Below are positions 10,545-41,416 of a stretch of 59,493 bases of DNA, one piece after another. The DNA is taken from the NCBI GenBank assembly GCA_043815185.1, contig JBDRJF010000023.1:1-59493 (forward strand), in the 5' to 3' direction. The stretch comes from Candidatus Omnitrophota bacterium. Lineage in GTDB: Bacteria > Omnitrophota > Gorgyraeia > Duberdicusellales > 4484-171. Position 1 is the stretch's first letter; the number at the start of each line of letters is the position of its first letter. The translations under genes were made by a program, and so were the position numbers. The notes beneath the pieces are model-generated. The model made no database searches and had not been told where the DNA came from. It saw nothing but the letters and a program-made list of their open reading frames with translations.

Positions 10545-10943
10545 TTACTCTAATGTCCCATCTCCCGCATAACTAGCAATTTTCTGCCTATCCTCTTTTT
10601 TAATCTCTAAAAATTCTACTCCTATCCTATATTTATTCTCTCCTTGTTCGAAACTCTCTTTCTTTATGTTTCTTGACCAAATTACCCTTGCTAAAGTAGC
10701 GATAGAAAAAATTATATCCTTAGAATGTTTGATTGGTTGATGTATCTCGAGTTCTAATTTGCTTCCTGGGGGAATATCCCTTTCTGTCTCAAACATTAAA
10801 CCACCACCGCTTATATTCTTAGCGATAGCTTTAACTTTATCCGAAGTATTTGACTCTAAACAATAGGTGATAAAAAGATTCTTCTCTAGACGTAAAAATT
10901 TTCTTCTCTCGAAACTCACAAATTTATCTTTTTCCATTACCAA
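10545..10943 (-). CDS. Single-domain PilZ protein (c-di-GMP receptor type)
   Basis: Has ERRKFLR (RRxxxR) and NISGGG (D/NxSxxG). Paralog of 15297..15695. Confidence 0.8.
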   Translation of the reverse strand: MVMEKDKFVSFERRKFLRLEKNLFITYCLESNTSDKVKAIAKNISGGGLMFETERDIPPGSKLELEIHQPIKHSKDIIFSIATLARVIWSRNIKKESFEQGENKYRIGVEFLEIKKEDRQKIASYAGDGTLE

Positions 10944-12351: not shown

Positions 12352-12729
12352 TTATCTATAATTTCGCCATTGGCTTACGCAATTTGAGATGTTATTTTTA
12401 TTATCCTTACTTAATTCTTTAAACTGAATAGCTACACCAGAATTACCGAAACCATCCCCCGGCTCTGCTGATTCAATTCTCACTATTACCCCTATACAAT
12501 CGATTACCTTTGGCCATACAGTAATTCTTGATGATCTAGACCTATTTAATAACAAAATAACTCTCACCTCCCCCTTTAAAAGCCCGGTTTCGTTAGTTTT
12601 GCAATATAGTCCAGAACAACTTATATTTTTGGTTTCAATTATAAGGGTAAAACCTTCTCCTCTAATTGTAACTGGAAAGCTACATTCTATTCGGGGATAG
12701 TATCTTCTTTCAGTTGGAGATTTAAACAT
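12352..12729 (-). CDS. Single-domain PilZ protein
   Basis: Has ERRYYPR (RRxxxR) and NISCSG (NxSxxG). Confidence 0.75.
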   Translation of the reverse strand: MFKSPTERRYYPRIECSFPVTIRGEGFTLIIETKNISCSGLYCKTNETGLLKGEVRVILLLNRSRSSRITVWPKVIDCIGVIVRIESAEPGDGFGNSGVAIQFKELSKDNKNNISNCVSQWRNYR

Positions 12730-13093: not shown

Positions 13094-15202
13094 TTAAAAT
13101 TTTTGTAGAAAAGAGACTAGGTTAATACCTTTACTAGATATCTTTATTTTATGCCGGATATTTTTGCGGTGTTTTCCTACTGTTTGAATAGAAATATTTA
13201 GAAGATTGGAAATCTCTTTGCTGGTAAGGCTGCTCTTTAACATATTGCAAATTTCAATCTCTCTAGGGGTTAGCTTAAGGTTTTTTTGGGTTATTTTACG
13301 GCCAAATGAAGAGGTTAGTTCTTTTAAGTGATATTGGAGCAAATTAAGATATTTAGCCGATGTTCCTTTTAATCTAAGTTTTCTTAAAATTGGCAGTAAT
13401 GATTCATCTATATTGATTGCTATATCTTCCTTTGTCTTATTTTTTGTCCTCTCGATATGCTCTATCATTTCTTTAAGCGCCAAGTTCTTTTGCTCCAAAG
13501 CTAATTTTTGTTCCCGTAGCATTGACTCAGACTTTTTCAGCTCCTCCTCCGCCTTCTTGCGCTCGGTGGTGTCCATACAAATACCCTGCATATCGACTAC
13601 CTTACCCTTCTCGTCTTTTTGCCATCTTACCCTATCTTCCAGCCATTTTATTTCTTTATTTCTGCTAACGATCCTGTACTCTAAGACTATATCTTCTTCT
13701 TCTTGAGCCTTGCTTAACAAAGAGAAAAGCCTTTCTTTATCTTCCGGATAAATTGTCTTCTCCCATAAGGAAGGGTCGGAAAGCCACTCTTTCTGGGTGT
13801 AGCCATAAATTTCTTCTACTGCTTTATTGACATAAATAGCTGCGAAATTCTTCGGGTCAGCTATATACACTAATTCCTTCATGTTCTCAGCTAATTCTCT
13901 ATATTTCTTTTCTGATTTCTCTAAGGCCTCCTCCACCTTCTTGCGCGAAAACGCGATGCCGATGCTAGTGCCCAACCCCTCAAAAAAAATAATCATATCC
14001 AGCGTAAAAGAGTTGCGTTTACGGTCATTAATCTGCAACAGCCCTATTATGCTGCTGCCAGCCTTGAGCGGAATCAGCGCCACGGATTCGTAGCCTGCGG
14101 TATTGCAGCGGTTGCGGGTGCGTGCCTGGCGCTCCTTTTCTGTGGTCGAGGCCAAAAGATCTGTGGTGCTATTGGTCCAGAAACTACCGCCCTCGGTAAA
14201 AAACGGCAGGTTAGCGTCAAACCGGCCAGAAAGGATACTCCCGCACATACACTCTAATACCGCATTCCCCTTTATGTCACGTATAATATTCCTCTTGTCT
14301 TCGCGGGCGCAAAAATACCGCCCTTTAAGTAGGAAATCTTCAGAAAAACCTTTAGTTTCGTAGTAAGGAAAATCTTCTCCTTCGCGTAGGCGGACACCAA
14401 TAGCCTCAAAACCCATGCTTTGTTTAATCAGCTGCAAGATAGAGGCAATAGTACCCGTTGTATCCTGCGGGTCGCTGAGTAAAACCAGCGTATCATGGCT
14501 AAGCTTTTCCATGATTTCCACCTTCTTGCGCTCAGAGCTTTCAAGAATCTCCCACTTACCTTCCCGTCTAATAAGGGCGAATTGATGATTGTTAACCACA
14601 TCTACAATTTCTGATGCCCCGCACTTATCAAGAGAATAGGTGCATATGGCAAGCATCCGATGTTTGCCGATAGCATTATTCACTGCTGCCTCATAATCAG
14701 CAAATTTTTTCCAATCATTTTTTTCAAGCCACGAGATATTTCCGGTTAAGCGCAAACCATCAAACCCCATCTTCAAGGCCTGGGCTTCTTTTTCAACCCA
14801 ACCCCGGAGTATATTATCAGCTTCGAACTTGCCCGATTTTGTATACCATTGACTATGGTCCAGGATTTCTATTTGGCCTTTTGTAATATACTTATCCAGA
14901 TCCTTTACTTTTTCTTTAAGTGCTTTCTTTACATCTTCAACTCCTAACGGTTCAAAAGTAACCCACATACAAAATTCATTATTCTCCAAACCCGCTTTAA
15001 AATAAGGCACCAGGATATCAATTAGATCTTCTTTGGTCTGGTAAAATTGGCAGAAGTGTGTACCCCAGGAAACATCACCGATAATGTCAATTCCCATTTT
15101 TCTAACTTTCTCAGCAGCTATAGGCGCTTTCGCTTTCCTGCGCTTGCTGATATCGTTGATATCGGTCTTAATATTACTATTCAGCACTTCAGGTTTATCC
15201 AT
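13094..15202 (-). CDS. MEDS-GAF-PAS-coiled-coil-LuxR(HTH) multidomain transcription regulator
   Basis: N-terminal MEDS-type motif GTHFCQFY...LVPYFKAGLENNEFCMWV, a central GAF-like region and a PAS region. C-terminal LuxR HTH LTPREIEICNMLKSSLTSKEISNLLNISIQTVGKHRKNI. Confidence 0.7.
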   Translation of the reverse strand: MDKPEVLNSNIKTDINDISKRRKAKAPIAAEKVRKMGIDIIGDVSWGTHFCQFYQTKEDLIDILVPYFKAGLENNEFCMWVTFEPLGVEDVKKALKEKVKDLDKYITKGQIEILDHSQWYTKSGKFEADNILRGWVEKEAQALKMGFDGLRLTGNISWLEKNDWKKFADYEAAVNNAIGKHRMLAICTYSLDKCGASEIVDVVNNHQFALIRREGKWEILESSERKKVEIMEKLSHDTLVLLSDPQDTTGTIASILQLIKQSMGFEAIGVRLREGEDFPYYETKGFSEDFLLKGRYFCAREDKRNIIRDIKGNAVLECMCGSILSGRFDANLPFFTEGGSFWTNSTTDLLASTTEKERQARTRNRCNTAGYESVALIPLKAGSSIIGLLQINDRKRNSFTLDMIIFFEGLGTSIGIAFSRKKVEEALEKSEKKYRELAENMKELVYIADPKNFAAIYVNKAVEEIYGYTQKEWLSDPSLWEKTIYPEDKERLFSLLSKAQEEEDIVLEYRIVSRNKEIKWLEDRVRWQKDEKGKVVDMQGICMDTTERKKAEEELKKSESMLREQKLALEQKNLALKEMIEHIERTKNKTKEDIAINIDESLLPILRKLRLKGTSAKYLNLLQYHLKELTSSFGRKITQKNLKLTPREIEICNMLKSSLTSKEISNLLNISIQTVGKHRKNIRHKIKISSKGINLVSFLQKF

Positions 15203-15296: not shown

Positions 15297-15695
15297 TTAG
15301 CTAATATGTTTAGTGCGGTTATCCACATACCTAGTGATTAGCTCTCTATCTTCTTCTTTGATCCCTGGAAATTCTACTCCTACTCTATATTTATTCTCTC
15401 CTTGCTCGAAATTCTCCTTCTCTATTTTTTCTACCCAAATTACTTTTGCCAAAACAGGTACACAGCGAATCGTACTCTTACCACAATTTATAGGTTGATA
15501 TATCTCCAGCTCCAATTCTTTCTCCTTAGAAATCTTTCTTTCTGTTTCAAACATTAATCCACCAGCACTTATATCGCAAGTAATAGCCTTTAACTTAATA
15601 TGGGGGCTCGCTCTTAAAAAACATACAATAAACATATTATCTTTGAAGCGAGGCAATTTTCTCCTCTCTAAATCTGGAAATCTCTCTTTCTCCAT
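15297..15695 (-). CDS. Single-domain PilZ protein, paralog of 10545..10943
   Basis: Has ERRKLPR and DISAGG. Shares GGLMFETER, ELELEI.QPI and FEQGENKYR.GVEF with the paralog. Confidence 0.8.
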   Translation of the reverse strand: MEKERFPDLERRKLPRFKDNMFIVCFLRASPHIKLKAITCDISAGGLMFETERKISKEKELELEIYQPINCGKSTIRCVPVLAKVIWVEKIEKENFEQGENKYRVGVEFPGIKEEDRELITRYVDNRTKHIS

Positions 15696-16458: not shown

Positions 16459-17790
16459 ATGTCGCTACAAGTAAAACTCACCAATAAATTAACCTATAAA
16501 TTAAAACTGACTCCCCAAATGAGACTGGGCATTAAACTCTTACAAATACCCCTGATTAAACTCCAGGAATTTATAAAACAAGAAGTTGAAGAAAATCCTC
16601 TTTTAGATGTGGAAAGCCCACCGGCGCTTAAACAGGAAAATTATAATTTCGACGATGAAGAAAAGAAAAATTATCGAGAAAGCCTCTTAACAAAGCCTGC
16701 TACACTTGCAGAACACCTTTTAAGGCAATTGCGCTTGTTTGTTGATACTTGCGATAAACGCCGGGCCGGAGAATTAATTATCGGTAATATAGATAACAAT
16801 GGATATTTACAATCTTCCGTAGAAGATATGGCTGAATCGCTCAAAACAACAAAGTCTTTAGTTGAAGGGGCATTATCCTTAATTCAAACCTTTGATCCTA
16901 TCGGTGTAGGAGCAAAAGACTTAAGGGAGTGTCTTTTATTACAACTAAAAGCAAAAGGGAAACAAAACCCCTTTGCCTGCCAAATTATCGATAAGTATCT
17001 GCCCTACCTTGAAAAGAAAAGCTACGAGTTTATTGCCAAGAAACTGTCCGCCGAAGGCGGATCCGTCTCTGGCGGAAAAGTTTCGGTTGAACAAATCAAG
17101 GAAGCAATAAAAGAAATAGCCCAGCTAGAACCTAAACCCGGCCGTTCTTTTAATGCAGAAAAAACTGTATACTTAATACCAGATGCTATATTAAAGAAAA
17201 ACAAAAAGCATTATGAGGTTGTATTCAATGACTGGGAATTGCCTCGTGTTACGCTTAATAATAAATATAAGCAAATGATAAAGCAAAAAAATACGCCCCG
17301 GGACACAAAAGAATACTTAAAAGAAAGACTTAGGGCTGCTCGGGCCTTGATTGAGGCTGTAGAAAAACGTAAAAAAACAATCCAAGAGATAATGGAAGCT
17401 ATTGTTTATATTCAGAAAGACTTTCTGGATAATGGAAAAACTAACTTTAAGCCAATGACTTTAGAACAAATTGCCAAAAAAATCGGCAAGCATAAATCTA
17501 CAATAAGCCGGGCCGTAGCTGACAAATATCTTCAGACACCTTGGGGTATCTTGGAATTAAGGTCTTTTTTAAATTCCGGGGTTAAGCAGAAAAACGGAGA
17601 GCTTTTCTCATCTAAGGCAATTAAATCAAAGATAAAAGGCCTAATCGAAAACGAAAACAAAAAGAAACCTTTAAGTGATCAGCAGATTGCCGGGTTCTTC
17701 AAACGAGAAGGAATATCTGTATCCCGCCGCACCATCGCCAAATACCGAACCCAGCTCAAACTCCTCCCCTCCCAATCACGACGCGAATAA
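16459..17790 (+). CDS. rpoN: RNA polymerase sigma-54 factor
   Basis: N-terminal LKLTPQM..GIKLLQ, C-terminal HTH and RpoN box SRRTIAKYR. Confidence 0.9.
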   Translation: MSLQVKLTNKLTYKLKLTPQMRLGIKLLQIPLIKLQEFIKQEVEENPLLDVESPPALKQENYNFDDEEKKNYRESLLTKPATLAEHLLRQLRLFVDTCDKRRAGELIIGNIDNNGYLQSSVEDMAESLKTTKSLVEGALSLIQTFDPIGVGAKDLRECLLLQLKAKGKQNPFACQIIDKYLPYLEKKSYEFIAKKLSAEGGSVSGGKVSVEQIKEAIKEIAQLEPKPGRSFNAEKTVYLIPDAILKKNKKHYEVVFNDWELPRVTLNNKYKQMIKQKNTPRDTKEYLKERLRAARALIEAVEKRKKTIQEIMEAIVYIQKDFLDNGKTNFKPMTLEQIAKKIGKHKSTISRAVADKYLQTPWGILELRSFLNSGVKQKNGELFSSKAIKSKIKGLIENENKKKPLSDQQIAGFFKREGISVSRRTIAKYRTQLKLLPSQSRRE

Positions 17791-17802
17791 ACCACCGGTA
17801 CC

Positions 17803-17824
17803 TAATTCGGGACAGACCCTATTT
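17803..17824 (+). repeat. REP-like repeat copy 1
   Basis: taattcgggacagaccctattt. Confidence 0.7.
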
Positions 17825-17890
17825 AAAAAAAATTAAAAAAAATGAAAGAATTTTGCCTTCTCATACGTCTATTAGATAAGGGAGTTGATT

Positions 17891-17908
17891 CAGGACAGAC
17901 CCTATTTA
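17891..17908 (+). repeat. REP-like repeat copy 2 (same orientation as copy 1)
   Basis: caggacagaccctattta. Confidence 0.6.
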
Positions 17909-17922
17909 TTCCATTTTAACTT

Positions 17923-18618
17923 ATGTCACGAATAGCTAGAATAGTATATCCAGCGTATCCTCATCATATAGTCCAACGGGGAAACAATAAACAGCCTATA
18001 TTTGGCGATGATCAAGATAAGCACTTTTACTTTGGATTACTGAAAAAATATGCCCGGCAAGGCGGTTGTAAAGTACATGCCTACTGCCTTATGACTAACC
18101 ACACTCATCTTTTACTAGTTCCTAATGAAAAAAATTCTCTAGCAATAACAATGCAAAAATTAAGCATGTCCTATACTCAACATATTAACAGAAAATATGA
18201 CCGATCCGGTAGATTGTGGGAAGGCAGATTCTTCTCTGCACTGATTGATAAAGAATCGTACTTATGGACAGTCTGTAGATATATTGAACAAAATCCTCTC
18301 CGGGCCAGAATAAGTGAGAAAGCTACTGATTATATGTGGTCTAGTGCAAGAATAAACAGCGGTTTAATAAAGTCTGATTTCCTTGAGCCTATATGGGAAA
18401 CATACTTAGATAAAAATGAATATCAAAGGCTTTTAGCTGAAGGTATTGAAGAAGCAGAAATAAAAAAGGTAAGAAAATCTACTTCGAAAGGGATTCCCTT
18501 AGGTTCTCAGGAGTTTTTCGATAGAATGGTTGGGCAATTTGGAAAATTGATAATCCCTAACCCCAGAGGAAATCCCTACAGAAAAAGAAATGGGGTCTGT
18601 CCCGAATTAAAAAATTAA
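17923..18618 (+). CDS. REP-associated tyrosine transposase (RayT, IS200/IS605 Y1 HUH family)
   Basis: YPHHIVQRGNN, HUH motif NHTHLLL and catalytic Tyr region RYIEQNPLRA. Confidence 0.85.
   Translation: MSRIARIVYPAYPHHIVQRGNNKQPIFGDDQDKHFYFGLLKKYARQGGCKVHAYCLMTNHTHLLLVPNEKNSLAITMQKLSMSYTQHINRKYDRSGRLWEGRFFSALIDKESYLWTVCRYIEQNPLRARISEKATDYMWSSARINSGLIKSDFLEPIWETYLDKNEYQRLLAEGIEEAEIKKVRKSTSKGIPLGSQEFFDRMVGQFGKLIIPNPRGNPYRKRNGVCPELKN
18588..18609 (-). repeat. REP-like repeat copy 3 (inverted; overlaps the last codons of the transposase)
   Basis: aaatggggtctgtcccgaatta. Confidence 0.7.
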
Positions 18619-18645
18619 GGAATTTGTGGCAAGATAAGACTTACG

Positions 18646-18808
18646 GCCGATAAGGGGGTGGCTTATGATATTTCACCTCCCGACTGCAACCCAGCCACCA
18701 TAGTAAACCCAAGTGTTTAACTTACCCTACGATCAGATAACCGCTCCTGGATACCTTAGGCCTGTTGGCTTTGCGCCCCTCGGTTTCCCGAAGTTTGCCT
18801 TCATCGGC
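18646..18808 (-). promoter_or_regulatory. GEMM-I (c-di-GMP-I) riboswitch-like structured RNA
   Basis: The minus-strand RNA reads GCCGAUGAAGGCAAAC-UUCGG-GAAA-CCGAG-GGGCGCAAAGCC-AACAGG-CCUAAG... This parallels the Vc2 aptamer AGGGCAAAC-stem-GAAA-stem-GGGACGCAAAGCC...GGCCUAAA. A GAAA tetraloop is present with 11-nt receptor halves CCUAAG and UAUGG. A long closing helix pairs GCCGAUGAAGG with CCUUAUCGGC. Confidence 0.65.
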
Positions 18809-18906
18809 TTTAATCTAAATATACAATATTTTTTGATCAGATTTCAAGGCCAGCAAAATTTACTCTTGGGTAAAATAGGGTCATCAACTCCCTTTTTTCT
18901 GGGGAA

Positions 18907-19311
18907 TTAAGGACGGGGGTTGCGATGAATGATAATAACTCTGCCCTCACTAATCATATCTTTTATCTTTTTCTTAAGCCATTGTTTAAACAATCTCCGC
19001 GTAAAGGAAATCAGCCCCATAAACCCAATCAAATCAGTTATAAGACCCGGAGTTAAAAGCAATATACCGCTGCATAAAATCAAAATGCCATCGAATAATT
19101 TATCTGCCGGCATCCGGCCATTATTTATCTCTTCCTGAATCCTGCGCAGAGTGATAAAACCTTGTAGCTTTGCCAGATAGGCACCTGTAACTCCGGTCAG
19201 AATTACAATCCCCAGGGTATAGCCTACTCCTATATACTGGCCAACCTTTATTAAAAGAGCTAACTCTACAATCGGTACCAACGTAAATAGTAAAATTAAG
19301 TATCCTAACAT
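18907..19311 (-). CDS. fxsA: FxsA-family inner-membrane protein
   Basis: N-terminal TM helices and LLLTPGLITDLIGF motif. About 130 aa. Confidence 0.75.
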   Translation of the reverse strand: MLGYLILLFTLVPIVELALLIKVGQYIGVGYTLGIVILTGVTGAYLAKLQGFITLRRIQEEINNGRMPADKLFDGILILCSGILLLTPGLITDLIGFMGLISFTRRLFKQWLKKKIKDMISEGRVIIIHRNPRP

Positions 19312-19476
19312 AATTTTTGCTTATTTTTTAAGAAATTTCGGACTTCTATTCCAGAACTATCTCTATATTGCTTATACCATCAGGCATTGTTTTTTCTTCC
19401 CCTTCTTATAAAATTCCTTTTAATTTTCTTCTGGGCAGGGAAAAAATAAAATTGGGGTCAAGAAAATGGTTCTTGT

Positions 19477-22170
19477 TTAAGGAATCGGCAGGACAATTCT
19501 AACTTCGGCCCCCTTATTCGGCTGACTATTAATCAACAGAGAACCATTATGGTTCTCAACAATGGTCTTAGACATAGCCAACCCTAAACCAGTTCCTTTT
19601 TTACTCCTTTTGGTGGTAAAGAACGGTTCAAATATCTTGGGGAGATTCTCCGCTGATATGCCTTCGCCGGTATCAGTTACCTCAATTATACAAACTGGCC
19701 TTTTTTTAGAAAACTCGGCTCCCGAGGCTTTATAAGTTTTGACCTTGATTCCACCGCCTTTAGGCATAGCATCAATTGAGTTAATAAAAAGGTTAAACAA
19801 AACCTGGTGTAGCTGATTCTTGTCTACCTCAATATAGATGTTCTCTTTGGAGAACTCAGTAGTAATGTCCACGCTTACCAGAGCCAGCCGATATTTAAGT
19901 AAAGACAAAGCATCTTCAACTAAATCCTGGGGTGCAATCTTCTCTTTCTTAATTTCGGAAGGCATAGCAAACTTTACTAAGTTGCGAACAATAGTATCGG
20001 CTCTTAAAGTAGATTCTTTTATTTTGATTAAAGCGGTCGTAACATCTTTATCCTTAGATTTTAACTTACGCTCCAGATATTCGGTGCCGCCAAGAATAAT
20101 CCCTAAAGGATTCTTCACCTCATGGGCTACGCCGGAAGAAAATCTTCCTAAGGCTGCAAGTTTTTCCGACTGGACCAAACTATACTGAGCCTCTTCAAGC
20201 TTAGCTGAAGCATGGCTCAATTCTTCATTGGCTTTTATCCGCTCCTCTTCTATCCCTATGGCTGAAGCAATGATTCCTAAAAACTTCTTATCTTCCTCCC
20301 CCAATAAAGGCTCATTCTTATAAATACCGCAGACTACGCCTATTGGTTTACCCCGGCACTTAACTGTTTGACCGATATAGGTACGGAATTGATAAAGCGA
20401 ACAAAAGGGGTCTTTACCGATATAATCGGAATGGGGTAAATTATATACAGTAAGAGCTCCTTCCTCGCGTTTATTGACTACATCGGAACAAATACTCTCA
20501 GAATACTTACCCTCAATTACATAATCAGCCGGAGGTTTATACCGGACTAAAGAATAGTAAGTATCTTCCTTAAAATTAATACGATTATAAAAGGCGGGGC
20601 TTGCTCCCAGAATATCGCCACAGAGCGTAACTAATTGTCGGATATTGTTTAAAGAATCAGCACCTAAATTTAGCAAACATTCGTTTGTCTGGCTTAAACG
20701 CTGTTCATCCTTTTTACGCTGGATAACTCCGGCTAAAGTAGTAGTAATCGTATTTAAAAAATCTTCTTCTTTTTTATCCCGCTTATGCCCTTTCTCTAAA
20801 TAGACGCCAATTGCCCCGACTATATTCCCGGCATAGACAATCGGACTGCAATAGCTGGCATAGGATACTTGAGTTTTACTCTTAGTCTGAATGTTTTTTC
20901 CAAGGCCATCGTCAAATTGAAAATCTCCCAAAGCTGCTGCTCGGCCACAAACCCCTTTACCAAAAGGAATCCGCCGATACTCCCTTTGCAAGGCTGGCGG
21001 GAGCCGGCTTTGAACTTTCATCACTAAAACCTGGGGGTCTTTTTCTACCAGAAATATTGCTCCTATGGCTTCTGAAGAAAATGAAGGGGCTGAGAGAATA
21101 ATATTAAGTGCACACTTTAGGAATCCCTCTAAAGAAATACTTTCCAAGGAGAAACGTAAAAGAGAATTTATTGCTGCCTGGGCACGATAGCTATGACGAA
21201 TTTCCTCTTCCTGCCGATTAATTTTAGTAAAATCCTCAACCGTCTCAATCGCCGCTATAACCTGGCCTTCTTTGTTCTCTACCGGAAAAGAAATTACCTT
21301 ATAAACCGCCTTTACCCCTCTTAAATTAGTCTTCATCAAAGCTTCCTGAATCTCTCGGCTAGCTAAGGCCTTACAGGTCGGACAAACCTTACAAGGATCC
21401 TTGGAAAAATTACTAAAGATATTATGACAAGCTGAAGTTTCGGTAAAATCTTTACCGGAAAACCACCTCTTCATCTGTTTATTCATGTATAGTAACTCAA
21501 TCTGGGGAGATACTAAAGATACCCCGATACGAATATTGTCAATTATGCTCTTATACCCCTTTTCAGTCTTCTTTAGTACATCTTCGGCCTGCTGATGAGT
21601 AGTAATGTCTATGCCGACACTAATAACATATTTAGCAAAGCCCCGATTATCGCAAACAACATTATTAGCCCACTTTATTAATCTCGGGCTCCCGTCTCTA
21701 CAGATCCAAGGATCTTCATACTCCTTGGGAAACTTACCCCGCTTTAAATCAAATAAATCATCCTTTGCTGTTTGGGCATCCTTTTTATTAAGAAACACCT
21801 TCCAAAAATGTTTACCCTTAACCTCCTCAAAAGAATAGCCGGTTATTCGTTCACAGGTGCGATTGAAGCGAATAATTCGCCCCAAAGAGTCAAAAACGAC
21901 TACTAACGACCCTACCCTGTCTAAAAGCGAAGGAATTAAGTCGTAGCTCTCTTTGGCCTCTTCTTCAAGCTTCTTCTGCCGGCGGCTGATAAGCTGAAAG
22001 TAAACACTGGCAACGGTCAAAAATAAAACTACTGTTAAGCGTGACCAGAAAATATAGACTGAGGGGTTAAAGGCTACCTCAATCAAATTACCTTGGTCAA
22101 AAATAAAAGCATCCACTCCCGACCAAATCAGCCAATAGACTAAACTAAGGATAATTGAGAAGATTATCAT
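19477..22170 (-). CDS. Large membrane-anchored PAS/GAF sensor histidine kinase
   Basis: N-terminal TM segments, PAS regions, a Cys cluster CHNIFSNFSKDPCKVCPTCKA and GAF-like regions. H-box SSGVAHEVKNPL, N box FNLFINSIDAM, G boxes DTGEGI and GTGLGL. Confidence 0.85.
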   Translation of the reverse strand: MIIFSIILSLVYWLIWSGVDAFIFDQGNLIEVAFNPSVYIFWSRLTVVLFLTVASVYFQLISRRQKKLEEEAKESYDLIPSLLDRVGSLVVVFDSLGRIIRFNRTCERITGYSFEEVKGKHFWKVFLNKKDAQTAKDDLFDLKRGKFPKEYEDPWICRDGSPRLIKWANNVVCDNRGFAKYVISVGIDITTHQQAEDVLKKTEKGYKSIIDNIRIGVSLVSPQIELLYMNKQMKRWFSGKDFTETSACHNIFSNFSKDPCKVCPTCKALASREIQEALMKTNLRGVKAVYKVISFPVENKEGQVIAAIETVEDFTKINRQEEEIRHSYRAQAAINSLLRFSLESISLEGFLKCALNIILSAPSFSSEAIGAIFLVEKDPQVLVMKVQSRLPPALQREYRRIPFGKGVCGRAAALGDFQFDDGLGKNIQTKSKTQVSYASYCSPIVYAGNIVGAIGVYLEKGHKRDKKEEDFLNTITTTLAGVIQRKKDEQRLSQTNECLLNLGADSLNNIRQLVTLCGDILGASPAFYNRINFKEDTYYSLVRYKPPADYVIEGKYSESICSDVVNKREEGALTVYNLPHSDYIGKDPFCSLYQFRTYIGQTVKCRGKPIGVVCGIYKNEPLLGEEDKKFLGIIASAIGIEEERIKANEELSHASAKLEEAQYSLVQSEKLAALGRFSSGVAHEVKNPLGIILGGTEYLERKLKSKDKDVTTALIKIKESTLRADTIVRNLVKFAMPSEIKKEKIAPQDLVEDALSLLKYRLALVSVDITTEFSKENIYIEVDKNQLHQVLFNLFINSIDAMPKGGGIKVKTYKASGAEFSKKRPVCIIEVTDTGEGISAENLPKIFEPFFTTKRSKKGTGLGLAMSKTIVENHNGSLLINSQPNKGAEVRIVLPIP

Positions 22171-27508: not shown

Positions 27509-28393
27509 TTAAAACTGACTATATCCTTTAACCTTAACCCTGGATGATTTCTCTTTATCCTTTAACTTATAACCCAAACTCTGGGAAGTTATTCTTCCGA
27601 TACAATAAAACTTACCCTTTAAGAGATTGATCTTTGGCTCTTTCTTATCAATAGTAAAGATTAACTCATAATCTTCACCGCGATAAAGGTCATTGACTCC
27701 TCTGGTCAAAGGAAGGGTTTCCCGCTCAATTACGGCTCCTTTTTTACTTAATTTTAATATCCGGGATAAATCAAGAATCAAACCGTCACTGATATCGATC
27801 ATTGAATTGACCTTAAAGTTCTTAACTAAATACTGGGCCTCTTTAATCCTGGGCTCAAAAGGCTTATTAAACGGCCGCTGGCCTAACCGATTCGTTACAA
27901 AAATATAATCTCCGACCTTGGCTCCAGACCTCAGTATTGGCTTTCGACAACTACCCATGCCCCAAACATCTAAAATCAGCTGATCTGAAGTACAAGTATC
28001 CCCGCCGGCTAAGGAAAATTTATATTTTTTGGCAAGCCTTAAGACTCCCTTTAATATTTGCTTAAGATACCGCTTATCCAAACCGCGGGAAACGCCTAAA
28101 GATACACCGATAAATTTAGGCACTCCGCCGCAGGCGGCGAAATCAGAAAGGACTCTGGCTACTGCCCGCCGGCCGATATCCTCAAAACTTATATTTTTTA
28201 ACTTAAAATGCACTCCCTCGATAAATAAGTCGCTTTTAAGCAGCAGCTTTTGGCTTCCTACCTTAACCACAGCGCAGTCATCGCCGATGCCAACCAGCAA
28301 ATCCTTAGCTGGCTTGACCTTTTTCCTTAAATAATCAATCCATTTCAGCTCGTTCATTCTGGGTTTGGTTTTGTAATTCGCAATTCGGGACAC
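27509..28393 (-). CDS. thiL: Thiamine-monophosphate kinase
   Basis: AIR-synthase-like fold motifs IGDDCAV, DLFIEGVHF and SLAGGDT. Confidence 0.8.
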   Translation of the reverse strand: MSRIANYKTKPRMNELKWIDYLRKKVKPAKDLLVGIGDDCAVVKVGSQKLLLKSDLFIEGVHFKLKNISFEDIGRRAVARVLSDFAACGGVPKFIGVSLGVSRGLDKRYLKQILKGVLRLAKKYKFSLAGGDTCTSDQLILDVWGMGSCRKPILRSGAKVGDYIFVTNRLGQRPFNKPFEPRIKEAQYLVKNFKVNSMIDISDGLILDLSRILKLSKKGAVIERETLPLTRGVNDLYRGEDYELIFTIDKKEPKINLLKGKFYCIGRITSQSLGYKLKDKEKSSRVKVKGYSQF

Positions 28394-28487
28394 AGCCTAT
28401 TTGAATTTCCCTTATCAGACTTATCTTTTTTTTGGGGATTTTCCTTTTTTTCCGCAAAATTTAAAACCGAAATTGTTTTCCTTTTTT

Positions 28488-29570
28488 TCAAAAAAAGTCG
28501 TTTACCAGCTTAGCTTTTTTAAATGGGGTCTGTCCCGAATTGCCCAGGGTTTGGACGATGTTTTTGATAAAGGGGGGGTAGATTATGCCCTTATCGCTGA
28601 CTATGGCAGTGATTAGTTTGTGGGAAGTTACATCAAAGGCGGGATTATAAACTTTTACTTTCTTAGGGGCAACTTCTACTTTATTGACTAACTTTCTTAT
28701 TTCATCTTTATTTCGCTCTTCAATCGGAATGGATTTGCCGCTCTTTAACTTTAAATCAAAGGTGTTAAAAGGAGCGACTACATAAAAAGGGATTTTATGG
28801 TAATTAGCTAATATTGCCAAACCATAAGTACCAATTTTATTGGCAGCATCGCCATTAGCAGCAATTCTATCAGCCCCGACAAAAATCTTATCGATTTTAC
28901 CCTGCGCCATTAAAATTGCCGCCATATTGTCACAGATAACAGTTGTTGGAACACCTCTTTTAGTTAACTCCCAAGCACTCAGCCGTGAACCCTGCAACAG
29001 AGGCCTGGTCTCATCAGTATAAACTTTTATATCTTTATAGAACTCATGAGCCTTATAAATAACCGCCAAGGCTGTTCCATCCCCGGAAGTAGCTAAAAAT
29101 CCGGCATTACAATGAGTTAATATTCTGTCACCTTTTTTTATAAGCTTAACTCCGTAATCAGCCATCCGCTCACAAAGCAAGATATCTTCTTGATTAATTG
29201 CCTTAGCTTCGTTTAAAATTATTTCTTTTATCTGGCTAACACTCTTATTTTTATTTTTTGATCCAGCTCTTTCTAATCTCTCTAAAGCCCAGGCTAAATT
29301 AATTGCTGTCGGACGACAAGATTTAAGGCGTTTTGAAGCTTTCTGAAATTCGCTTAAGAATTTCTTCTTAGTTAAAGATTTATTCTTAAAATGTACATAA
29401 AGACAATATGCTGCAAAGACTCCGATTAAAGGAGCGCCCCTTACTTGGAGCTCTCCTATAGCCTTATAACCGCTATCTAAACCCTCACACTCTTTCCAGG
29501 CCTCTTTTAAGGGGAGTTTAGTCTGATCAATATAAAATAACCGCTTATTTTTAAACTTTATAGCTCGCAT
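28488..29570 (-). CDS. mtnA: Methylthioribose-1-phosphate isomerase (eIF-2B alpha/beta/delta-like family)
   Basis: VRGAPLIG, DETRPLLQGSRL and GADRIAANGDAANKIGTY. ATG 29570 (MRAIKF) is preferred. The last ~15 codons read through a REP copy. Confidence 0.8.
   Translation of the reverse strand: MRAIKFKNKRLFYIDQTKLPLKEAWKECEGLDSGYKAIGELQVRGAPLIGVFAAYCLYVHFKNKSLTKKKFLSEFQKASKRLKSCRPTAINLAWALERLERAGSKNKNKSVSQIKEIILNEAKAINQEDILLCERMADYGVKLIKKGDRILTHCNAGFLATSGDGTALAVIYKAHEFYKDIKVYTDETRPLLQGSRLSAWELTKRGVPTTVICDNMAAILMAQGKIDKIFVGADRIAANGDAANKIGTYGLAILANYHKIPFYVVAPFNTFDLKLKSGKSIPIEERNKDEIRKLVNKVEVAPKKVKVYNPAFDVTSHKLITAIVSDKGIIYPPFIKNIVQTLGNSGQTPFKKAKLVNDFF
28521..28541 (-). repeat. REP-like repeat copy 4, embedded in the 3' end of the mtnA ORF
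   Basis: aaatggggtctgtcccgaatt is identical to 18588-18608. Confidence 0.7.
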
Positions 29571-29632
29571 TTTGATTTTATTATTCGAAAATATTGGAAG
29601 AACCATTGTTGCGAAGATGAAACAAAGAGTAA

Positions 29633-40705: not shown

Positions 40706-41416
40706 TTAGGGTTTTCTTTTCTCTTTTGGTTTATGAAGCAGCTTCCAGGGATGGTTTTTTAAATCCGTGAGAAACTCTTCGGTGGCCTGGTATAAAGAAT
40801 CATCATAAACTAGCCGGCCGATTGTTCCTTGCTTATTCTTCACATCTTTAACTAAGCCTTTTATATCTAAACTTATATCTTCTAGGTTAAGCAATATATT
40901 CTCAAAAGAGTTCTTAAGCTTTCCCTCTTTCACAAATTCGTCTATTTCCTTCATGGTTTTAGTAAAAGCTGCAAAAACAGTAAAAAGCGGCACTGGCGAA
41001 GTCCCTTCGATAATATCACCATCGTTGATATAAGCTGTTGGCTCATCAATAGGAGTAATCTCTAAGTATTTTTCACCAAATAAACTCAAACTATTAACAA
41101 AAAAGTAAGCGTTTTTGGGAATTTTTACTCCCTGCTGGACTTTGGCGTGAACATAAACTTTAGAGTGACCCTTCTCCTCCCGGACTAAAACCTTTTGCAC
41201 TTCTCCTACATCTACGCCGCAAAAACGGACCGGCGAAGAAGTGCGCAGGCCTTCGGCAAAATCAAATTTAGCAATTACAATATAGCTGCCTTTAAAAATA
41301 TTGATATCTCGCAGAGAAAGAAGGGTAATAAAAAATAAAGTAAAAGCGGCCAAGAAAAAAGTACCTAATTTTACATAAGTAAGACTTTTTTTTCTGTCCC
41401 ATAAATTTATTCCCAT
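40706..41416 (-). CDS. mlaD: MlaD-family MCE-domain protein
   Basis: N-terminal TM anchor plus MCE domain. Sits in an operon with MlaE and MlaF. Confidence 0.75.
   Translation of the reverse strand: MGINLWDRKKSLTYVKLGTFFLAAFTLFFITLLSLRDINIFKGSYIVIAKFDFAEGLRTSSPVRFCGVDVGEVQKVLVREEKGHSKVYVHAKVQQGVKIPKNAYFFVNSLSLFGEKYLEITPIDEPTAYINDGDIIEGTSPVPLFTVFAAFTKTMKEIDEFVKEGKLKNSFENILLNLEDISLDIKGLVKDVKNKQGTIGRLVYDDSLYQATEEFLTDLKNHPWKLLHKPKEKRKP

Follow-up and report, generated by a model that had tools for sequence, protein, structure and literature searches.

A c-di-GMP-I riboswitch without a downstream gene, convergent with a RayT-like transposase gene in a REP cluster of an Omnitrophota bacterium

Canonical class I riboswitches for cyclic di-guanosine monophosphate (c-di-GMP-I, also GEMM-I; Vc2 and its kin) are built around a GNRA-capped helix P2 that docks into a receptor in helix P3, the junctions GGCAAAC and CGCAAAGCC, and a G and a C at the ligand-contact positions. 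A different use of the same aptamer is described for merRNA of Bdellovibrio bacteriovorus, a massively expressed GEMM-I small RNA of 445 nucleotides (nt). Here the aptamer heads a non-coding RNA with no conserved open reading frame (ORF) downstream; merRNA expression is documented, and the RNA is lineage-restricted and conserved in a second strain (PMC3627812). Antisense riboswitches, as known from the Listeria B12 riboswitch with AspocR, the S-box antisense RNA of Clostridium acetobutylicum and a survey (PMC9943018), lie at most 500 nt from the 3' end of a gene of opposed orientation. Of the surveyed ones, 54 face transposases (PMC9943018). REPtrons, or RAYT-REPIN systems, consist of a Y1 HUH transposase gene flanked by inverted 21-nt repetitive extragenic palindromic (REP) units, with further REPs elsewhere (PMC3116915, PMC3337134, PMC5581495). 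The present analysis concerns a c-di-GMP-I riboswitch on the minus strand of contig JBDRJF010000023.1 from a Candidatus Omnitrophota bacterium (assembly GCA_043815185.1; positions 1 to 59,493, referred to as the window), which has no gene of its own downstream and points into a RayT-like transposase gene. Omnitrophota are a phylum known only from metagenomes.

For identification of structured RNAs, the whole window was searched by cmscan with Rfam 15. RF01051 (c-di-GMP-I, gathering score 35 bits) matched at 18809..18682 on the minus strand with 59.3 bits (E 4.3e-09) and covered model positions 1-87 of 87. This was the sole match in the window exceeding any Rfam gathering score. A permissive rerun yielded no further credible match; a sub-threshold mir-1262 match at 40870-40958 (30 bits, gathering score 70) was taken as chance. 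A sequence-only reading of the stretch had recognised a GEMM-I core on this strand and named RF01051 as the model to check it with; the full-length, significant match bears this out. Within the aptamer (18682..18809), alignment to RF01051 places the GGCAAAC core junction at 18799..18793, a P2 stem of 6 base pairs (bp; CUUCGG/CCGAGG) with a GAAA cap at 18787..18784, the conserved CGCAAAGCC junction and the 3' UUGC. The GAAA tetraloop and both halves of the 11-nt receptor in P3 (CCUAAG 18760..18755, UAUGG 18702..18698) were found where that reading had put them. The 3' strand of P1, GUCGG (18684..18680), directly follows P3 and can be paired with CCGAU (18807..18803; read from the sequence, duplex -4.9 kcal/mol), resulting in a standard, short P1. 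Unlike canonical GEMM-I aptamers, this one carries a 44-nt extension in the distal P3 loop (18750..18707), which appears as an insert in the alignment and can be closed by CCAGG/CUUGG; predicted folds lengthen P3 into it. It also differs by an A in place of the second C of the 3' 'gCC' consensus. The same position is U in a good family member (L092) from the comparison set, which comprised 107 fetched loci (L-numbered) plus plasmid and phage collections.

Columns of the ligand-contact nucleotides (Vc2 G20, A47 and C92), mapped to Vc2 numbering by our own reading of the RF01051 alignment, fall in GGCAAAC, CGCAAAG and UUGC, respectively. The G20 equivalent is G and the C92 equivalent is C. Of the two guanines of the ligand, one is contacted by G20 of Vc2 and the other is base-paired to C92, and GEMM-Ib members that sense cyclic GMP-AMP (cGAMP) have A at position 20 (PMC6140456). 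Both candidate positions in the window (GAAGGCAAAC) are G and not this adenine (PMC6140456), and the aptamer is therefore assigned to the c-di-GMP type. Helices were compared with three unrelated family members: 5 of 22 predicted pairs were changed on both sides with pairing kept (e.g. A-U in the window and G-C in other members at columns 47/118), and support for the fold thus goes beyond primary-sequence likeness. The score of 59 bits is lower than that of four other GEMM-I members (74-82 bits), and the P3 insert explains much of this deficit. Judged from its sequence, the element is almost certainly a real c-di-GMP-I riboswitch and its aptamer is apparently ligand-competent; the aptamer itself is a textbook member of RF01051.

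In contrast to canonical GEMM-I, this aptamer is located in a convergent intergenic spacer and not in a 5' untranslated region (UTR), and it has no downstream ORF and neither a terminator nor a platform of Shine-Dalgarno (SD) sequence and start codon. The spacer separates fxsA (18907..19311, minus strand), which lies upstream of the riboswitch on the same strand, from rpoN (sigma-54; 16459..17790, plus strand). Down to position 17800, the minus strand contains no ORF with a plausible start after the riboswitch. The sequence-only reading had noted only a 12-codon ORF, which is corrected to GUG, 10 codons and a stop (18676..18641), with the GUG inside an SD-like GGGAGGUG (18681..18674) that has no start codon behind it. 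An anti-SD-like CACCCCCUUA is also present in the expression-platform region. Among the largest minus-strand ORFs, the only one near the riboswitch is a 23-amino-acid (aa) frame with TTG start, which lies inside aptamer and tail; other minus-strand frames down to 17800 (20-32 aa) are situated within the rayT antisense. Neither for the 11-codon GUG frame nor for the 23-aa TTG frame in the aptamer was there support for translation. An intrinsic terminator was not detected on the minus strand at 18700-17700, either by the tool's terminator scan or by a lenient hairpin-plus-U scan. The locus therefore does not present the 5' leader of an ORF, with terminator or SD-sequestering platform, that is usual for RF01051.

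It does present the antisense arrangement. The aptamer ends at 18682, and a RayT-like Y1 (HUH) transposase gene (17923..18618, plus strand; PF01797 59.4 bits) that converges with the riboswitch has its stop codon at 18616-18618, which is within the 500 nt used for the definition of antisense riboswitches (PMC9943018). Characterised antisense riboswitches have a ligand-controlled terminator ahead of their target, whereas none is detectable at this locus: the minus strand holds no terminator-like site between 18682 and 17800. The claim of an orphan GEMM-I RNA pointing into a RayT gene is thus upheld by the Rfam match, the missing ORF and the convergent orientation. The riboswitch is not the leader of a gene that codes for a protein; instead it heads an ORF-less unit of promoter, aptamer and switching helix.

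As promoter, a sigma-70-like site TTGAAA-18 nt-TATATT (18847..18818, minus strand) was identified, which has 10 of 12 consensus matches and is the best-scoring site in 17000-19500. It ends 9 nt before the first aptamer base, with an expected start at about 18811-18809. The number of promoter-like sites in 17000-19500 does not exceed shuffle expectation, and the promoter argument is therefore one of placement and not of statistics. Promoter and terminator calls were made by consensus scans, and the consensus may not be that of Omnitrophota.

The switching helix is formed with a C-rich 3' segment, AAGCCACCCCCUUAUCGGC (18664..18646), which contains CCUUAUCGGC. GCCGAUGAAGG (18808..18798) can pair with CCUUAUCGGC (18655..18646) to give a closing helix with a duplex energy of -12.4 to -14.6 kcal/mol. 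The sequence-only reading had described it, around a 163-nt segment, as 11 bp with one mismatch; both strands are in place, and the predicted helix has in fact 10 bp and one bulged G. When the 37-nt tail was dinucleotide-shuffled, 39 of 5000 versions paired equally well with the 5' strand, so that the helix is moderately beyond chance. Since the helix occupies the 5' strand of P1 and the GG at and next to the ligand-contact position, it excludes the aptamer. For growing transcripts, the predicted minimum-energy structure was aptamer-like up to 18655 and flipped to the closing helix once 18655-18645 was present; in these folds the tail is unpaired only while the aptamer is formed. A penalty of 24 kcal/mol on enforcing the hand-drawn aptamer pairs mostly reflects the junction treatment of the energy model, and this number was not used. 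The stretch behind the aptamer contains 30% C and 13% G, corresponding to the 95th percentile of C-over-G in the window. The closing helix is connected to the nearest REP copy (REP3, see below) by a 35-nt AU-rich linker with C-over-G bias (18611..18645, minus strand), which includes the rayT stop codon on the other strand and for which no homologue was found elsewhere.

What this unit puts out we infer throughout. We tentatively favour, at somewhat short of even confidence, a free-standing, riboswitch-headed non-coding transcript whose sole target in cis is the convergent rayT. Transcription would start at about 18811. Binding of c-di-GMP would keep P1 (CCGAU/GUCGG) and the aptamer in place and leave the C-rich 18664..18646 unpaired; with no ligand, the C-rich segment would take the 5' strand into the 10-bp closing helix and the binding pocket would be lost. 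The transcript would then run antisense into rayT, which is reached on the opposite strand 27 nt after the closing helix. Because no terminator was found and the rayT stop is this close, the physically linked output would be antisense RNA or transcription collision at rayT, so that the ligand would act on the amount or fate of RNA antisense into rayT, or on collision with rayT transcription. As a possible route, Rho or RNases would gain access to the C-rich, G-poor stretch depending on the ligand, and in the end c-di-GMP would modulate the RayT transposase. This reading is supported by how compact the unit is: only 35 nt separate the switch helix from REP3, and they contain no pseudogene debris. 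The promoter of its own, the lack of coding potential and of an intrinsic terminator downstream, the predicted flip to the closing helix and the C-over-G bias also speak for it. In addition, the c-di-GMP class is the most antisense-enriched riboswitch class (152 antisense and 2554 sense, P 4.6e-62; PMC9943018).

Several observations weigh against it. A recognisable output module, be it a terminator or an SD with start codon, was not found after the aptamer. A second hairpin noted by the sequence-only reading, GGUGGCU (18699..18693) with AGCCACC (18663..18657), has both sequences in place, but pairing as good was obtained in 1909 of 5000 shuffles and is not beyond chance. GGUGGCU is the 3' strand of P3, so this hairpin, if real, would compete with the aptamer and be the second such contact. 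The overall energy gain from adding the tail was likewise not unusual (166 of 1000 shuffles). A 3' tail statistically designed as anti-aptamer is accordingly only partly supported, as of these three measures only the helix with the 5' strand is significant. REP3 might halt the transcript before much of rayT is covered. Furthermore, no GEMM-I was found in the loci of seven fxsA or rpoN relatives (Rfam scan to E 0.1; L107 excluded), nor at L074, L080 and L084, the three RayT contexts that were Rfam-scanned. By blastn, the 257-nt segment with promoter and riboswitch (18611-18867) had no homologue in plasmids or phages, and none in the fetched loci, in which nothing beyond the generic aptamer core was matched. 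In a degenerate pattern scan of metagenome contigs, the only GEMM-I members among the matches listed were four unrelated, GC-richer ones, one of which precedes what we take, from its opening residues, to be a flagellar rod gene. Given a single occurrence without homologues, purifying selection cannot be shown. Finally, the authors of the survey regard transposase-adjacent antisense riboswitches as insertion accidents (PMC9943018).

Whether an accident of this kind applies was judged from relatives. Named relatives of FxsA, RpoN and RayT are nearly all labelled Candidatus Omnitrophota. The closest RpoN in the protein database is merely 73% identical, which indicates a fairly isolated genome; an exact-protein look-up of FxsA returned no record. 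In three independent relatives from the Omnitrophota, fxsA and rpoN lie directly end to end, 3' towards 3', with spacers of 98 nt (L002, FxsA 87% identical), 10 nt (L085/L086) and 8 nt (L095/L096). Neighbours of fxsA or rpoN differ in L001, L087, L090, L097 and L107. As the 8-98-nt spacers are without riboswitch, the 1.1 kb that includes the riboswitch is lineage-specific. The sequence-only reading had suggested synteny as a means to find the gene that normally follows. No such gene exists in these relatives, in which fxsA and rpoN converge directly and without a riboswitch. The first of its three options, loss or displacement of the regulated gene by REPtron insertion, loses weight in its simple form, because no co-oriented gene lies past rayT and none was seen in relatives; a more complex rearrangement may still have occurred. 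Its other two options, control of an antisense transcript across rayT and a c-di-GMP-responsive small RNA, may each apply. Displacement of a regulated gene by the REPtron is thus unsupported, given the synteny of L002, L085/L086 and L095/L096 and seven relatives free of GEMM-I. For the same lack of a co-oriented gene past rayT, this locus is not fitted by the survey's account of transposase-facing cases, in which a transposase gene has inserted between the riboswitch and the true target (PMC9943018).

A stranded leader of another origin is a serious, if doubtful, possibility. Promoter, aptamer and the first half of a platform would once have preceded a gene. The rest would have been removed when REPs recombined or caused a deletion, or when a fragment flanked by REPs moved, leaving a functionless relic that is intact because the event is recent. 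The platform indeed looks incomplete, having an anti-aptamer helix, the SD-like GGGAGGUG and the anti-SD-like CACCCCCUUA yet no start codon or terminator, and the site is a rearranged REP cluster absent in relatives. The riboswitch segment is unique, with no conserved homologue found, and published opinion on transposase-adjacent antisense riboswitches as insertion accidents (PMC9943018) points the same way. However, simple insertion between riboswitch and target is excluded, since all that lies past rayT is REP1 and, on the other strand, the rpoN 3' end, and since in relatives the space between fxsA and rpoN never holds a gene. No gene fragment remains in the 35 nt between switch helix and REP3. 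The lower score (59 bits against 74-82 bits in four other members) fits a relic, but the 44-nt P3 insert accounts for much of it, and promoter, ligand-contact positions, tetraloop with receptor and switch helix are all intact.

The transposase gene and its repeats were characterised next to the riboswitch. The best NCBIfam match of the RayT protein is NF047646 (REP-associated tyrosine transposase) with 71.2 bits, which is below the equivalog cut-off of 80, and the translation shows an HTH (HUH) motif and YIEQNP. Two direct copies of a 21-nt REP unit, AATTCGGGACAGACCCYATTT, lie upstream of rayT on the plus strand (REP1, 17803-17824; REP2, 17887-17908). An inverted copy (REP3, 18585..18610, minus strand; GGGACAGACCC followed by CAUUUCUUUUUC in the minus-strand RNA) overlaps the last rayT codons. 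REP1 and REP2 on the plus strand and REP3 on the minus strand show 85-95% complementarity. The core of the repeat was matched 4 times in the window with 0.35 matches expected. With these results the context given by the sequence-only reading (RayT-like gene, REP copies, rpoN 3' end) was confirmed. A fourth, degenerate copy (REP', 18871..18894, minus strand) sits 12 nt past the fxsA stop; it is an inverted REP2 with its left flank, AAGGGAGTTGAT and GACCCTATTT, 8 nt short, with an inverted repeat of 12/12. Being of REP2 type, it has kept only the GACCCTATTT half (18873-18882). Farther off, an inverted REP doublet with about 110 nt between the copies (28392-28540) looks like a REPIN. The RayT gene is thus flanked by inverted REP copies with REP also present at a distance, as in REPtrons. 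In the window, REP copies oriented as GGGACAGACCC-YAUUU closely follow the 3' ends of genes, namely rpoN and a 372-aa gene (28488-29606), and one follows the riboswitch in the same way.

The order of elements in the 1.1-kb insert is REP, REP, rayT, REP, riboswitch, degenerate REP. Consequently, the entire rpoN-fxsA spacer is bounded by inverted REPs, and the 257 nt with promoter and riboswitch (18611-18867) are bracketed by REP3 and REP'. A riboswitch transcription unit between two flanking REPs distinguishes the window from the REPtrons of the literature and is not described in PMC3116915, PMC3337134 or PMC5581495. Transport of the riboswitch as cargo of the RayT unit was considered as well. 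The nearest RayT relative, L074, is 88% identical in aa and 89% in nt and has a different context, and its DNA homology to the window comprises 17890-18518 and REP3 and goes no further. In five contexts of RayT relatives (L074, L080, L084, L100, L106), the next gene downstream always runs towards the RayT gene, and the 27-100 nt between the two leave no room for a riboswitch. The limits of the L074 homology, these short gaps and the lack of GEMM-I in the three scanned contexts rule out the cargo explanation. Because RayT relatives are always convergent with a neighbour, counter-transcription is the rule for this RayT family, which counts in favour of rayT as the target in cis. The other flank of the relatives is divergent where visible, and in L080 the RayT gene is found between the gene for ATP synthase subunit c and the remainder of the atp cluster.

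Further features of the RayT region were recorded. RayT of the window has 231 aa (187-204 aa in relatives), with about 50 extra nt between the conserved part and REP3. Its frame runs through REP3, so that the last residues, NGVCPELKN, are repeat-encoded; the 372-aa gene at 28488-29606 also ends inside a REP. Upstream of rayT, a 25-codon ORF (17842-17919) shares sequence with REP2 and has its stop 3 nt ahead of the ATG of rayT, and the stretch from 17826 has 71-74% DNA identity to the RayT upstream regions of L080 and L084. The octamer GATAAGGG has 11 sites in the window (e.g. 17875, 18649, 28409, 28588) with 3.3 expected, a number reached by 0 of 100 shuffles. REP copies are close to four of the sites, and a further site is complementary to the tail of the riboswitch; the excess could be due to codon usage or to a REP-associated motif. 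Two short matches (GAATTTTGCCTTC at 17848, GATAAGGGAGTTGATT at 17875) hinted at a relic second riboswitch upstream of rayT. This was rejected, as L080 and L084 have homologous DNA upstream of their RayT genes and GATAAGGG is over-represented in general.

The position of REP3 also bears on a possible action in trans. A discrete RNA of about 225 nt, from about 18811 to REP3, might bind c-di-GMP and buffer the messenger as proposed for merRNA, or pair through its C-rich tail (CCACCCCCUUAUC) with G-rich or SD-like sites. We consider this unlikely, although the RNA has its own promoter and no ORF, its 3' end resembles that of window genes in having a REP copy just past it, and merRNA provides a precedent (PMC3627812). 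The tail, predicted to be unpaired only when the aptamer is formed, could find a candidate target in GAUAAGGGAG, 34-48 nt upstream of the rayT start, and its complement matches 17875-17890 at 13 of 16 positions, 8 of them contiguous. The specificity of this pairing site is reduced by the 11 occurrences of GATAAGGG in the window. The REP3 hairpin is very weak (only -4.2 kcal/mol) and fails the terminator scans, for which reason REP3 was also rejected as an intrinsic terminator. Conservation was not found, and a role as sponge would require massive expression. Unlike merRNA, the predicted RNA had no homologue in the loci and collections compared, and it would run antisense into a transposase gene.

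Very improbable, finally, is a 3'-UTR element of fxsA, transcribed by read-through and affecting the stability of the fxsA mRNA 3' end. The riboswitch lies on the same strand 97 nt downstream of the fxsA stop, and no strong terminator was found between the two. A well-placed promoter is, however, situated between fxsA and the aptamer, and six fxsA contexts in relatives are without riboswitch. To our knowledge there is no precedent for GEMM-I as such an element.

Outside the rpoN-fxsA spacer, the PilZ-rich surroundings pointed out by the sequence-only reading were confirmed: three stand-alone PilZ-domain genes lie within 5 kb at 10.5-15.7 kb (10545-10943, 12352-12729, 15297-15695). Near them are a MEDS-PAS-LuxR regulator (13094-15202), PAS/GAF histidine kinases and an XRE-cupin regulator, and the rpoN / XRE-cupin / PilZ neighbourhood is similar in L085 and L086. 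On contigs of the comparison set, an SMC-like gene of >1600 aa with intein and LAGLIDADG domain matches was seen on the one that carries the closest RayT relative (L074, 1-4657). In L090 (1805-3481), a 215-aa gene of unknown family lies between two fxsA paralogues, with AbiEi-like and nucleotidyltransferase genes next to them. A bacterial RNase P RNA of class A (270 bits) is located about 900 nt downstream of rpoN on a Candidatus Auribacterota contig (L003, 8361-8775).

Orphan GEMM-I RNAs (merRNA) and antisense c-di-GMP riboswitches, including transposase-facing ones, are already on record, and this locus is unusual only in that it lies in a REPtron and that the customary 'insertion accident' can be excluded. 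Its point of interest is what a riboswitch does without a gene to regulate. In statistical terms, c-di-GMP riboswitches of the orphan and antisense kinds are common, though almost uncharacterised, and the locus offers a clean case, in which a transposon landing between riboswitch and target can be excluded by synteny and the unit is compact and intact. At its most far-reaching, and in our view improbably, a REPtron would have taken up a c-di-GMP riboswitch, which would act there as a non-coding gene complete in itself and couple the messenger to RayT, through ligand-gated antisense or convergent transcription or through a C-rich tail released onto the rayT leader, or else the riboswitch would serve as an Omnitrophota merRNA-like c-di-GMP sponge. 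If the locus is a relic, it documents that REP clusters strand regulatory RNA. If it has a function, a domesticated transposase/REP system would be tied to c-di-GMP signalling, or the RNA would be a second riboswitch-only RNA after merRNA; a riboswitch coupled to RayT would be the first second-messenger control of REP/RAYT activity.

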